From: Bacillota bacterium
GTDB taxonomy: Bacteria > Bacillota > Sulfobacillia > Sulfobacillales > Sulfobacillaceae
DNA: 64,000 nt
Assembly (NCBI GenBank): GCA_021798975.1
Contig: JAJZBJ010000001.1
Span: forward strand, 161-64,160
Reading direction: 5' to 3'
Part shown: positions 7,128 to 44,286 of the stretch, in pieces
Layout: each line of letters opens with the position of its first letter
Position numbering within the stretch: position 1 is the stretch's first letter
Made by a program: the position numbers and the translations under genes
Notes under the pieces: generated by a model
Databases searched by the model: none
What the model was told of the DNA's origin: nothing
Seen by the model: the letters and a program-made list of their open reading frames with translations, nothing else

Positions 7128-7221
7128 TGGCGGAGGAGGAGGGATTCGAACCCTCGAGGCAGGATTTGGCCCACCAACACGCTTTCCAGGCGTGCGCCTT
7201 AAACCGCTCGGCCACCCCTCC
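7128..7221 (-). tRNA. tRNA-Ser (GGA)
   Basis: GGAGGGGTGGCCGAGCGG...CT-GGA-AA..., long variable arm, GGTTCGAATCC, encoded CCA. Confidence 0.96.
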
Positions 7222-7237
7222 AAGTATCAATCATCAA

Positions 7238-7331
7238 TGGCGGAGAGGGTGGGATTCGAACCCACGAGACGGGGTTAAGCCGCCTACCCGATTTCGAGTC
7301 GGGCTCCTTCGACCAGCTCAGACACCTCTCC
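7238..7331 (-). tRNA. tRNA-Ser (CGA)
   Basis: GGAGAGGTGTCTGAGCTGG...CT-CGA-AA..., long variable arm, encoded CCA. Confidence 0.96.
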
Positions 7332-40054: not shown

Positions 40055-41326
40055 TTATGACCGCTGGAACTGCGCCTCTTCCGTAGAGCCGGTCAGCGCA
40101 GTTGTCGACGATTGGCCGCTACTAATAGTCAAGGACACCGCATCGAAGTACCCAGCCCCCACCTCTTGTTGATGGCGGACCGCGGTGTAGCCGTCCCGCT
40201 CTCCCTGGAACTCCGCCTGCTGCAGTTTCGAGTAGGCTTGCATGCCCGTCTCCCGGTAGCTCCGGGCCAGTTCGAACATGGACCAATTCAGGGCATGGAA
40301 GCCGGCCAACGTGATGAATTGGAACTTGTAGCCCATCATCCCTAATTGGTCTTGGAAAGTCGCCAAATCGTGCTCCGTGAGCTTGTTTTGCCAGTTGAAG
40401 GAGGGCGAGCAGTTGTACGCCAGCCATTTCCCGGGAAATTGGGCATGAATCGCTTCGGCAAACTCCCGGGCTTCCCCGAGGTCGGGTGTGGATGTCTCGC
40501 ACCAAATCAAGTCTGCGTACGGGGCGTACGCCAACGCCCGGTGGATGGCCGACTCCAGCCCGGCACGTATGCGGAAGAAGCCCTCCGGCGTCCGCTGGCC
40601 GGTCAGGAAAGCCGCATCGCGGACATCAATGTCGGACGTCAGCAAGGTGGCGGCCTGTGCATCGGTTCGGGCGATGAGCAGTGTCGGCACCCCCATGACA
40701 TCCATGGCCAACCGCGCCGCCACCAAGTTTCGGACCGCTTGGCTGGTCGGAATGAGCACCTTGCCGCCCATGTGGCCGCACTTCTTCTCGGAGGATAGTT
40801 GGTCTTCAAGGTGCACCCCCGCGGCACCCGCTTCGATAAGGGCCTTGACCAGCTCAAATACATTCAGCGGTCCCCCAAATCCCGCCTCGGCGTCAGCTAC
40901 GATAGGGACAAACCAGTCGATGGGGTTGTCATGTTCCAGCCGGTCGATCTGGTCGGCCCGCATCAGGGCGCGGTTGATGCGCCGTACCATCTGCGGAACA
41001 CTATTCACGGGATAGAGAGATTGGTCCGGATACGTTTCCAACGATGCATTGCCATCCGCCGCCACTTGCCATCCGCTGAGATAGATGGCTTCCAGCCCGG
41101 CCTTGACTTCTTGAACCGCTTGATTCCCGGTGATGGCCCCCAGCGTGCGGACATAGGGCCGTTCGGACAAGAGTCCATACAGCCTCTCCGCCCCATGCCG
41201 CGCCAACGTATGCTCAACCACCAGAGAGCCTTGCAGCCGGTCCACATCTTCAGGACTGTACGGTCGGTGTATCCCGTGCCAACGGGGGTTTGTCTGCCAA
41301 TCCTCATGAATTCGGCGCTTATCCAT
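40055..41326 (-). CDS. aceA: Isocitrate lyase
   Basis: [19 protein letters not shown]...[18 protein letters not shown]. Confidence 0.98.
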
Positions 41327-42926
41327 TCATCTGCCTCCCTTGTGGTGTCGATATCACGGAACGATCGATCAGCGCCCGGTACGCGGGCTCGGTGATAAAC
41401 TCGAGGAACTGGTCATCTAAGATGGCGGCCCGCAAAATGTCCCGGGCCACAGCCGCCTCGCGTGATCCGGCGAGGTCCTGCGCGGCCGCATCCAGCCACT
41501 GGTCCAACAGCGGCCCCGTCACTAAGCGGCCATCGGTTAAGGTGACCCGGTGGTACCGCCATTGATAGAGCTGGGCCCGGGCGATTTCCGCCGTGGCAGC
41601 ATCCTCCATCAAGTTATACAGACCCACTGCGCCTTGCCCTTTTAGCCACGCGGTCAGGTATTGCAAGCTGACCGCCAAATTGTTGCGGACGCCCGCTTCG
41701 GTGACGGCTCCGCCGGGAACCTCGAAACGAAGCAACGCGGCGGCTTGGGGAGGGGTCGTGCGATTGCGCCGATGTTTTTGATGGGGGTTGGGCCCCAAGA
41801 CGTCATCGAACGCGGCTTGAGCGGTTTCCACCAAGTCAGGATGGGCGACCCAGGTTCCGTCAAATCCCTGCTCCGCCTCCCGGCGCTTGTCATCCCGAAC
41901 CCGGCTGAGCGCCAGTCGATTGACCTCCGGGTCCCGACGGCTGGGAATGAACGCGGCCATTCCGCCAATGGCGTGGGCCCCGCGTTTGTGACAGGTGTCC
42001 ACCAGCAGCTCGGCATAGGCGCGCATAAAAGGGACCTCCATGGTCACCTGGGCGCGATCCGGCAAAACAGCGTCAGGATGCTCCCGAAACCGCTTAATAA
42101 TGCTGAACAGATAGTCCCACCGCCCCGCGTTGAGACCCACGATATGGCGACGCAGCACGTAGAGAATCTCCTCCATCTGCAGGGCGGCCGTTATGGTCTC
42201 AATGAGGACCGTGGCCTTGATGGTGCCCGGCTCCATGCCCAACGCCTGTTCGGCGTAATCGAAGACCGCATTCCAGAGGTGCGCCTCCGCGTAGGATTCC
42301 AACTTGGGCAAGTAGAAATAGGGTCCCGTACCATGCCGCTGCAGGCGGGCATGGTTGTGAAATAGGTACATGCCGAAGTCAAACAAAGCCCCCGCGAGCG
42401 GTCGGCTGTCTACCAACACGTGCGCTTCAGGAAGGTGCCAGCCCCGCGGCCGCACCACCAGCACGGCCCGGTTGGGCTTCAACTGGTATTCCTTGCCTGC
42501 GTCGGTCGTATAGTGCAGCGTCCCGTCGATGGCTTGCGCCAAGTTGGCCTGCCCCTCCAACAAGTTCTCCCATGTGGGACTTGAGGCATCCTCGAAATCG
42601 GCCATAAACACACGGGCTCCCGAGTTGAGGGCGTTGATGACCATTTTGGCGTCGGTTGGGCCGGTAATCTCCACGCGTCGGTCCATCAAATCTTCGGGAA
42701 TCGGATCGACCTGCCACGTCCCGTCATGCCGGACGCTTTCGGTTTCCGGTAAAAAGTTTAGGGATCCGCCCCTGTTCAAGCGAAGCTGTGTCTCCTGTCT
42801 TCTGGTCAGGAGATGCTGTCTTTGGGCATCAAACTGTTGATGCAAGGCCTCCAAAAAAGCCAACGCCTTGCCAGACACAAGCCACTGCTGTCGGTCCGTG
42901 ACGGGGCCGAGCACCTTCACTGCCAT
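41319..42926 (-). CDS. aceB: Malate synthase A
   Basis: [41 protein letters not shown]. Confidence 0.97.
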
Positions 42927-43145
42927 GGAATCCGCCTCCTTCGATGACCATCACGCGACTATATGCTCATGATATCGAGGGCCAAAGGCACCCGAACAAG
43001 ATTCCCGGCGAATAGTCGGATTTAGGCGCCGAATAGGAAGCGCGCTTGGTTCAACGGTCGGATGATTGTCCGTCGACTTGATGCCAGGCTCGATTGGAGA
43101 GACAATAACTGGGAATCCACGATCGCAACGGGAGGTGAATGAACC

Positions 43146-43928
43146 GTGGAGAAAACCCCTTTACTCAGCGTGAGCCCAGAACCGGTGACGCTGTGGTACG
43201 AAGGCCCCACCTTTCTGGTGGCTGAGAAACCGCCAGGACTTGCGGTGCATCCGGATAGCCTGGAAGGCCCGGACAGCTTGGTCAACCGGTTATTGCAAGC
43301 GAACCGGTGGCTGGCGGAAATGGAGACGAGCCACACCCCAGGCGTGGTTCACACACTCGAGCAGGAAGACCGCGGCTTGGTCCTCGTCGCCAAATCGGAC
43401 GAAATGGCTGAGACTCTTCGCGCACAATACCGTGCGGGCCGCCTCACCTTTTCCTATCGCGTCCGCCTGCCGGATTCCGTTTCACCCCGGCAGCGGGATG
43501 ATGTCCAGATCCTGGACCATCAAACGGCCGACAACTGGGCTCTCTTTGACATTGACAGTGCCGTTGGGGATACCGGCGTGTTGCGGAGCGAGTGGCTGGG
43601 GGGCGCCGAAGACGCGTTTTTTGTCCTCTATCGGATGCGTATCCAAACCCCGGCCAAGACGCTGGAAGTCGGCCTCGCCGATCGCGTATGGCTTCCCTCC
43701 ATCGACCTGTACACGGTTCCGCCGTGAAGCGTGTGCAATGGGACGAAAGAGTTTCTTTCGGAAAATGGGTTCATCTATCGAGACCACACGTTAAGCGAGC
43801 CCGAGAATGTCGAAACCATGCGGAAATTGCGGGGTGACGAGCGCGGCATTCCGGTCATTCTGATGAATGGGCAGGTCGCCGTCGGATTTGACCGCCATCG
43901 GTTAAAGCAGAGTCTCGGCATTTACTAA
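43146..43928 (+). CDS. Probable selenoprotein: degenerate RluA-like domain fused to a glutaredoxin/NrdH domain (U-S-V-C)
   Basis: ORFs 43146..43727 and 43731..43928 are in frame; TGA 43725-43727 sits at the first Cys of a Grx CxxC (LYTVPP-U-SVC-NGTKEFL...GIPVI...GFD). Confidence 0.78.
43744..43760 (+). promoter_or_regulatory. Candidate bacterial SECIS hairpin
   Basis: CGAAAGA-GTT-TCTTTCG perfect stem; loop G lies 24 nt after the UGA. Confidence 0.6.
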
Positions 43929-43965: not shown

Positions 43966-44286
43966 ATGGCAGATTGGTCCGGCACGCTGACACTTCAGCC
44001 TGAACAAGTCGACGCGTTGGAAGCCTTTATTCGTGAACCCGACACGCGCAGGAGCGACATCTTCGACCAGGGCAGCCTGGGCCGCGACGGGGCTGTACGG
44101 GTGGACTGGATTATCAAGCACGACCTCTATGAAGGCGTGGTCGTGCATTGGAGCTTAATGTCGGCGGACGGCAACACCTTTCTATGCGGAGCGGAAAAGA
44201 GCCTCCGGGAAGCTCGCGAACTATTCGACCGCTTCACGTTGAGCCACGACGGACGCAGTTACGACATCACCGTTCGCCGCGGTTGA
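43966..44286 (+). CDS. Hypothetical protein
   Basis: GGGAGG RBS, 106-aa globular-looking ORF. Confidence 0.65.
   Translation: MADWSGTLTLQPEQVDALEAFIREPDTRRSDIFDQGSLGRDGAVRVDWIIKHDLYEGVVVHWSLMSADGNTFLCGAEKSLREARELFDRFTLSHDGRSYDITVRRG

Follow-up and report, generated by a model that had tools for sequence, protein, structure and literature searches.

Does the TGA triplet at positions 43725-43727 of a Sulfobacillaceae (Bacillota) genome segment terminate a gene, or does it encode selenocysteine (Sec)? The segment, called the window in the following, is the whole stretch of 64,000 nucleotides that was analysed (contig JAJZBJ010000001.1 of assembly GCA_021798975.1, positions 161 to 64,160). On its plus strand, positions 43146-43928 form a single frame of 260 codons with a lone in-frame TGA at codon 194. 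The initial annotation, made from the letters of the window alone, had interpreted this stretch as one 260-residue Sec protein, in which the TGA occupies the first Cys position of a glutaredoxin (Grx) active site and is followed by a hairpin resembling a selenocysteine insertion sequence (SECIS). The comparative data presented here make it very probable that positions 43146-43928 are one gene for a SECIS-recoded selenoprotein of 260 residues, which combines a presumably redox-active Grx with a probably non-catalytic module of the RluA fold.

Translation of the frame gave 66 sense codons between the TGA and the TAA at 43926-43928, which confirms that the frame stays open beyond the presumed stop. 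The TGA is embedded in the sequence IDLYTVPP-TGA-SVC-NGTKEFL and thus takes the first position of a CxxC-type site (U-S-V-C), as had been proposed. The protein ends with ...LGIY directly in front of the TAA and does not contain a C-terminal U-x-x-stop. The GTG at 43146 is supported as start codon by the orthologues described below, whose alignments open at residue 1-2. The gene and its recoding site comprise the following elements:

43130-43137, plus strand: Shine-Dalgarno-like GGGAGGTG, read from the sequence; the GTG start follows 8 nt further on.
43146-43928, plus strand: complete selenoprotein gene with GTG start, Sec codon 194 and TAA at 43926-43928, predicted from the translation, from full-length orthologues covering residues 1-260 and from an AlphaFold2 (AF2) model.
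43725-43727, plus strand: predicted Sec codon UGA, residue 194, with TGA or Cys in one alignment column.
43725-43736, plus strand: redox motif U194-S-V-C197, located by the model where helix alpha-1 begins; all 25 aligned sequences contain [U/C]-S-x-C.
43744-43760, plus strand: putative SECIS hairpin with a 7-bp stem (43744-50/43754-60) and a GUU loop (43751-53), based on conservation, covariation and low synonymous diversity.

TGA closes 12 of the 36 long open frames of the window. The triplet thus functions as a normal stop without any reassignment of the code, and recoding has to be site-specific. All components required for Sec insertion are present in the host assembly (2.9 Mb, 87% complete). 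SelA was found with an E-value of 3e-141, the wing domain of SelB was found in a 642-aa open reading frame (ORF), and a tRNA-Sec has the anticodon tca. SelD itself carries a G-U-G-C-K Sec site (S-G-U-G-C-K; L036:230, contig C15), and a strong hairpin follows right after its UGA. As selA, selB, selC and selD all exist in this genome, a lack of Sec machinery, which the initial annotation had named as a reason to abandon its proposal, does not apply. Two tandem tRNA-Ser genes (gga, cga) at positions 7128-7221 and 7238-7331 of the window (minus strand) gave sub-threshold matches to the tRNA-Sec model and are ordinary.

Orthologues were identified by means of a six-frame search in 40 related genomes. 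Full-length orthologues (residues 1-260) were found in approximately 20 of these genomes, and in the resulting alignment the same column contains TGA in 16 of 20 cases and Cys in the other four. The context of this column is DLYT-x-P-x-[U/C]-S-[VI]-C-x-G-x-K. The named records, which overlap with the set of 20 orthologues, comprise 17 TGA and 7 Cys forms (n = 24). They originate from Sulfobacillus and related acid-mine Bacillota metagenome-assembled genomes (MAGs), and from the isolate Sulfobacillus thermotolerans Kr1, which possesses a Cys form. Furthermore, three distant full-length relatives with 33-38% identity were found in Bacillales, namely in one MAG, in Terrihalobacillus insolitus and in Bacillus pinisoli. 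All three contain TGA at the same codon (Y-x-A-P-P-U-S-S-C). By sequence, the family is thus not confined to the Sulfobacillia lineage. The TGA codons of the Bacillales copies predicted that Sec machinery exists in the corresponding genomes, and this prediction held: SelA was found in all three, and both isolates possess a tRNA-Sec on the selA contig. SelA is also retained in genomes with Cys forms; the Cys forms are therefore site-specific replacements and do not result from a loss of the Sec trait. In a maximum-likelihood tree, Sec occurs in both deep clades, and the Cys forms are nested at 2-3 places inside Sulfobacillia.

The frequencies of differences at the three codon positions are 0.31/0.24/0.58 downstream of the TGA and 0.38/0.28/0.63 upstream of it. 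The downstream pattern matches the upstream one, which indicates that the frame after the TGA is translated. These data also bear on the simplest alternative, a recent nonsense mutation or a sequencing error in a Cys codon. It is true that TGA is only one base away from TGC and TGT. However, the TGA has been kept in more than 19 genomes down to 33% protein identity, purifying selection persists downstream, and the same TGA base occurs in contigs from three independent metagenome studies. The conservation of the TGA already refutes this explanation, whose probability is practically negligible. Likewise, the objection that the relatives might simply contain TGC or TGT does not apply, because TGA is found in 16 of the 20 orthologues and in the three Bacillales copies, and Cys elsewhere.

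The hairpin that follows the TGA consists of CGAAAGA (43744-43750), the loop GTT (43751-43753) and TCTTTCG (43754-43760). Its loop G lies 24 nt past the A of the TGA, and both the letters and the positions given for this perfect hairpin were confirmed. Published criteria for bacterial SECIS elements are an apical loop of 3-9 nt, a stem of 4-16 bp and a G in the first two loop positions, which is usually followed by G or U (PMC13188914). The same source specifies a distance of 16-37 nt from the UGA and a minimum free energy of -7.5 kcal/mol or lower. With its GUU loop, 7 bp and a spacing of 23 nt, the hairpin agrees with these values for loop size, stem length, loop G and distance. A hairpin of 7-9 bp with a G(U/G)U triloop at a fixed offset is present in every Sec form; in the Sec forms other than that of the window, its energy lies between -6.7 and -13.0 kcal/mol and is mostly -7.5 or lower. 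In contrast, at most 3-4 bp of the hairpin are left in the Cys forms, and none of them retains more. The comparison of L018 (Sec) and L021 (Cys) is a case in point. Both encode the identical peptide T-K-A-L-L-S, but only the codons of L018 allow for pairing (-12.4 kcal/mol). These sister genes constitute a natural SECIS experiment: for the same peptide, the hairpin is present with UGA and absent with UGC. Conversely, the peptide is different in L020 and L030 (V-K-S-F-L-T), and the hairpin is still formed with a shift of one base.

Further comparative evidence points in the same direction. Over the stem, 89-95% of the cells are paired versus 38-65% in slid controls. Two independent double compensatory changes were observed, namely A-U to C-G (L018/L019) and A-U to G-C (Bacillales). 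Synonymous diversity is 0.15 over the hairpin codons 200-205 versus a gene mean of 0.61, which is the lowest value of 88 six-codon windows. Covariation, suppressed synonymous variation and the loss of the hairpin in the Cys forms thus support the proposed SECIS function. A T>C change at 43758, within the stem, was seen in one X5 contig with a depth of 2.2 and was judged unreliable.

Taken together, the Sec machinery, the Sec/Cys pairing, the conservation of the SECIS and the coding selection downstream of the TGA support the interpretation as one Sec protein of 260 residues. With high confidence, we infer from these sequence comparisons that the locus is a genuine selenoprotein gene and that Sec is inserted at codon 194. 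As the Sec form of this protein is known here from its sequence, one might argue that the UGA is read through by a near-cognate Cys- or Trp-tRNA or by a suppressor, and that the hairpin merely slows down termination. Such a read-through is very unlikely. In every lineage tested, Bacillales included, the TGA is accompanied by a complete Sec machinery. Moreover, the hairpin fits the SelB-type consensus, in which a small loop at 16-37 nt has a G followed by U/G (PMC13188914), and the UGA coincides with the catalytic Cys of a CxxC motif, a classic site for Sec.

The host genome contains three stand-alone glutaredoxin-like ORFs of about 80 aa, in each of which an in-frame TGA opens the U-x-x-C motif (UPHC, UHAC and UGAC). 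They are located at L035:347 (+), L041:1525 (+) and nt 1525 of the reverse complement of L042, on contigs C32, C79 and C67. The same pattern is found in many related genomes, and these ORFs are probably further unannotated selenoproteins. The hairpin in another Sec gene of the genome, which codes for a stand-alone U-G-A-C redoxin, likewise carries its triloop (GUG) at an offset of +27.

How has such a gene been recorded so far? In a collection of 5.8 billion proteins, the family is represented by Cys forms of about 261-269 aa and by entries of about 193-202 aa that span 74-75% of the query. Its members are named 'pseudouridine synthase', 'glutaredoxin' or 'hypothetical'; in RefSeq, the copies of T. 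insolitus (202 aa) and B. pinisoli (173 aa) are both called 'pseudouridine synthase'. An exhaustive profile search in 1.84 billion representatives yielded only 12 sequences with E <= 1e-30, 8 of which terminate at position 194 of the profile. Positions 197-261 are covered by distinct 65-aa 'proteins', and the hits ranking below the family are ordinary synthases that match positions ~10-115 only. As anticipated by the initial annotation, gene callers have split the gene: database entries break off at the Sec codon, and the tail is matched by orphan 65-aa ORFs.

The databases hold exactly the two products that are expected if the locus consisted of two separate genes, one for a 193-aa pseudouridine-synthase-like protein and one for a 65-aa peptide with its own start at GTG 43731. 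This arrangement is nevertheless extremely improbable, and the comparative data already contradict it. Of the Grx fold, the 65-aa ORF would be missing both beta-strand 1 and the first redox residue. No Shine-Dalgarno sequence precedes 43731, and this GTG is not conserved, being replaced by ATT in L029. Finally, the Cys forms are continuous proteins of 261-269 aa. The preferred interpretation thus remains a single gene, whose product comprises two domains. The elements of the C-terminal domain are:

43701-43925, plus strand: glutaredoxin/NrdH-like C-terminal domain with a thioredoxin fold, residues 186-260, based on PF00462, Foldseek and profile matches.
43848-43853, plus strand: I235-P236, with the conserved proline before strand beta-3; it is invariant in 25 sequences, and strand 237-240 comes next in the model.

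The Pfam model PF00462 (Glutaredoxin) matches residues 188-244 with 27.6 bits for the domain and 24.7 bits for the whole protein, versus a gathering threshold of 22.9. The match spans the TGA; in agreement with the DSSP assignment of the model, beta-strand 1 of the Grx precedes the TGA, as had been claimed. The AF2 model of the whole chain, which was based on an alignment of 21 sequences, is a single compact structure with a pLDDT of 93.7 and a pTM of 0.91. Its elements follow each other in the order strand 186-190, U194-S-V-C197, helix 195-206, I235-P236 and strand 237-240. For the Grx domain (residues ~186-260), Foldseek identified cGrx1 (7c10) as the best match, with a TM score of 0.86 and an rmsd of 1.6 A, followed by BC3987 and NrdH; the TM scores are in the range of 0.79-0.86. 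None of the 25 aligned sequences deviates from [U/C]-S-x-C or from I235-P236. I235-P236 takes the position of the cis-Pro of the thioredoxin fold, and the proline presumably adopts the cis conformation. Redox centre and fold argue for a function of the protein as a selenol/thiol-disulfide oxidoreductase.

The elements of the N-terminal domain are:

43146-43700, plus strand: N-terminal domain of the RluA fold, catalytically degenerate and acidic, residues ~1-185, based on PF00849, Foldseek and net charge.
43302-43331, plus strand: family-specific loop N53-R-W-L-A-E-M-E-T-S62, near-invariant from Sulfobacillia to Bacillales.
43350-43376, plus strand: degenerate synthase motif II H-T-L-E-Q-E-D-R-G (versus H-R-L-D-K-D-T-S-G), from a profile alignment to RluD.

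PF00849 (PseudoU_synth_2) matches residues 23-113 with 36.1 bits versus 26.8, but covers only positions 2-84 of the 152 profile positions. For residues ~10-185, Foldseek retrieved RluA (2i82, E 2.9e-9), RluD and RluC, the E-values of the three together ranging from 3e-9 to 1e-7. In the profile alignment, the catalytic Asp of RluD falls into a variable column, which contains E, A, M, R or H and never D in the 20 orthologues; the three Bacillales copies have D in one case and E and H in the other two. The score for TIGR00005 (rluA_subfam) is 37.8 bits versus a cut-off of 192.7. The net charge of the domain is -10 in the protein of the window, with a family median of -9 and an isoelectric point (pI) of 4.5-6.1. 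In comparison, HR[LI]DKDT[ST]G is kept in all nine genuine synthases of the phylum that were considered. These are mostly neutral to basic with net charges of -6 to +11, most having +3 to +11 and a pI of 7-9.4, although bulk charge is only a proxy for an RNA-binding surface. In the loop N53-S62 (NRWLAEMETS), 8 of the 10 residues are invariant across 25 sequences despite an overall identity of about 35%. Judged by its sequence, the N-terminal domain is a catalytically dead RluA-type fold and not a pseudouridine synthase. Most plausibly, the dead, acidic synthase fold serves as a binding module for a partner, which is probably not RNA.

A further possibility is a dual output of the gene. The UGA at codon 194 would mostly act as a stop and yield a 193-aa acidic pseudo-synthase as main product, the 260-aa Sec form would be made only when selenium is plentiful, and the selenium supply would set the ratio. 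Sec recoding is indeed reported to compete with termination by RF2 in dependence on the selenium supply (PMC4513850), and the hairpin of this gene is of moderate stability only. On the other hand, the model packs the N-terminal domain and the Grx into a single unit (pTM 0.91), the Cys forms can yield nothing but the full-length protein, and the database searches revealed no stand-alone gene for the N-terminal domain that closes in any other way than with a TGA at this site. A dual output is therefore unlikely.

For the full-length selenoprotein, the following mode of action can be proposed. During translation, the hairpin at 43744-43760, with its GUU loop and its spacing of 23 nt from UGA194, would act as a bacterial SECIS. 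It would recruit SelB-GTP-Sec-tRNA(Sec), so that UGA194 is decoded as Sec and not as a stop. The product would consist of two tightly packed domains. In the NrdH/YruB-type Grx domain, U194-S-V-C197 would alternate between the selenol/thiol and the selenylsulfide state and thus function as a thiol-disulfide oxidoreductase. The N-terminal domain, devoid of the catalytic Asp and of basic character, would be a non-catalytic module, which binds a partner or substrate on behalf of the redox centre.

Which protein could reduce the Sec-Grx? In a well-supported sister clade (containing L018, L019, L021-L023 and L025), a flavoprotein of the CoA-disulfide reductase (CoADR) family is encoded directly upstream on the same strand. 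It consists of Pyr_redox_2 and a dimerisation domain, has a single active-site Cys in S-Y-S-A-C-S-I-P-Y, and scores 434 bits with TIGR03385, which is below the equivalog cut-off. One database protein (P0054) joins the flavoprotein gene and the gene of the selenoprotein family. The CoADR-family flavoprotein is therefore a candidate reductant of the Sec-Grx. The best CoADR-like homologue of the host genome, L080 (C187:27272-28624), lies in a 607-aa open frame with one in-frame TGA and is possibly a member of a known family of Sec-containing CoADR-like proteins, which PMC13188914 lists. In one genome with a Cys form, the CoADR-like reductase (L021 ~309-1366/L048 ~1812-2869) matches in pieces in different frames and looks broken.

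Extending these considerations, it can tentatively be proposed that an uncatalogued selenoprotein family is described here for the first time, which has apparently contained Sec since before the split of Sulfobacillia and Bacillales. Its dead, acidified synthase fold would be the specificity module of a Sec-glutaredoxin and, together with the CoADR-type flavoprotein, would form a new NAD(P)H-driven system for the reduction of disulfides or persulfides, with a target that is probably not RNA. This wider proposal is possible but doubtful.

Several observations weigh against parts of this interpretation. The hairpin of the gene itself has an energy of -6.8 kcal/mol on a 33-nt segment and is thus slightly weaker than the criterion of -7.5. 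The fold of the 66 nt after the UGA (-13.1 kcal/mol) is no better than chance, with z = 0.01 versus shuffled sequences. By folding, the hairpin is hence unremarkable on its own, and its significance results from the comparative data only, where the conservation of its nucleotides could in part stem from the conserved peptide TKEFLS. The notion that Sec is ancestral is limited by the tree, which has a midpoint root only and no outgroup. The Grx domain scores below the cut-off of every specific NCBIfam redoxin family, the values being 42.9 versus 88.55 for YruB (TIGR02196), 26 versus 85.75 for NrdH (TIGR02194) and 43.3 versus 66 for Uxx-star (NF041212); the Bacillales copies are likewise below the NCBIfam cut-offs. 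With respect to function, no neighbourhood is common to the loci of Sulfobacillia and Bacillales, which makes this part of the argument weak. The CoADR-like gene is not adjacent in the host genome of the window, and its adjacency elsewhere is confined to one clade and represents one evolutionary event. The involvement of the flavoprotein is for these reasons a hypothesis and not a finding.

The immediate neighbourhood in the window contains one further element:

43966-44286, plus strand: 106-aa ORF without known family, 37 nt downstream of the selenoprotein gene.

This ORF, which matches no Pfam or NCBIfam family, immediately follows the gene at 8 of the 20 orthologous loci, in the genus of the window, and at 4 of the named loci. 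No terminator-like site was detected between the two genes, and the scan for promoters and terminators was otherwise uninformative. The ORF is possibly co-transcribed with the selenoprotein gene. Upstream, isocitrate lyase and malate synthase of the glyoxylate shunt are encoded divergently (window positions 40055-42926, minus strand), an arrangement shared with close relatives only. In T. insolitus (L065:1216-2921, plus strand), a sigma factor of the extracytoplasmic function (ECF) type with 173 aa and an overlapping 395-aa protein without family are encoded directly upstream on the same strand; this pair was not seen at the two remaining Bacillales loci.

The mode of recoding is standard, whereas the fusion architecture is new and the family appears to be uncatalogued in the catalogues and annotations that were checked. 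No NCBIfam model reaches its cut-off for the family. In a table of prokaryotic selenoprotein families from a 2026 review, Grx (PF00462, UxxC) is included but no entry has a pseudouridine-synthase domain, and a literature search for a pseudouridine-synthase/glutaredoxin selenoprotein found none. A feature-based search of the ESM Atlas with the natural Cys homologue P0010 returned only generic synthase clusters with scores < 0.8. Among 400 genomes sampled evenly across the phylum, no family other than this one showed the full-length architecture. The predicted protein thus adds an architecture missing from the 2026 catalogue, a pseudo-enzyme fold joined to a Sec-Grx. It also discloses a small family that has been miscalled as truncated 'pseudouridine synthase', including the RefSeq entries of the cultured T. 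insolitus and B. pinisoli. Furthermore, it indicates that Sec is used by aerobic Sulfobacillia of acid mines and by a small number of Bacillaceae, a group that rarely shows this trait. Cultured carriers exist, which makes both the insertion of Sec and the role of the dead synthase domain amenable to direct testing.

How does the protein compare with known systems? With respect to recoding, the reference is the bSECISearch model of Zhang and Gladyshev, as summarised in Fig. 2 of PMC13188914. In accordance with this model, a stem-loop lies within the coding sequence just 3' of the UGA and possesses a 3-nt apical loop opened by a G and then U/G, a stem of 7-9 bp and a spacing of 23 nt. In contrast to it, the hairpin of the gene has -6.8 instead of the threshold of -7.5 kcal/mol, and conservation includes neither a bulged U nor an extended lower stem.

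The N-terminal domain resembles the RluA-family synthases (2i82; RluD 1prz/1qyu; RluC 1xpi) in the fold of residues ~10-185, in motif I (K-P-x-G) and in the flanking strands. It differs by the loss of the catalytic Asp of H-R-L-D in 20 of 20 lineage orthologues, one of the three Bacillales copies having an Asp. In addition, the domain is shorter, acidic instead of basic, and contains the extra NRWLAEMETS loop.

For the C-terminal domain, the best structural match is cGrx1 from Clostridium (Alkaliphilus) oremlandii OhILAs (7c10), with 30% identity and a profile match of E 4e-10. This enzyme is reported to be a selenoprotein (Kim et al. 2011, as cited in PMC13188914); for crystallography, the Sec of the native protein was replaced with Cys (PMC7642778). 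As far as it is described in these sources, cGrx1 is likewise a small redoxin of the thioredoxin fold with Sec at the first position of U-x-x-C and a bacterial SECIS. However, cGrx1 is a stand-alone protein of about 84 aa with U-P-x-C and the known partner MsrA, whereas the protein studied here has U-S-V-C and a pseudo-synthase domain of 185 N-terminal residues. Among curated selenoprotein models, Uxx-star (NF041212, NF041211 and NF041114) and the HUGP/GUXX-star fusion (NF045501) score best with the Grx domain (43, 37, 24 and 28 bits), and they too represent Grx-like selenoproteins of Bacillota, some of which are fused. Unlike them, the protein lacks a U-x-x-stop and has another fusion partner, and its scores are below the cut-offs of 66, 100, 72 and 325. 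Finally, the small redoxins YruB, NrdH and BC3987 of Bacillota share with the domain the size, the fold and the C-terminal G-F-D-R-x-x-L-K helix region, and BC3987 (3zij) and NrdH (1r7h, 4fiw, 1h75) match both in profile and in fold. The Grx domain is distinguished from them by scores below the family cut-offs (YruB 43 versus 88.6; NrdH 26 versus 85.8), by the predicted Sec in place of the first Cys, and by the fused domain.

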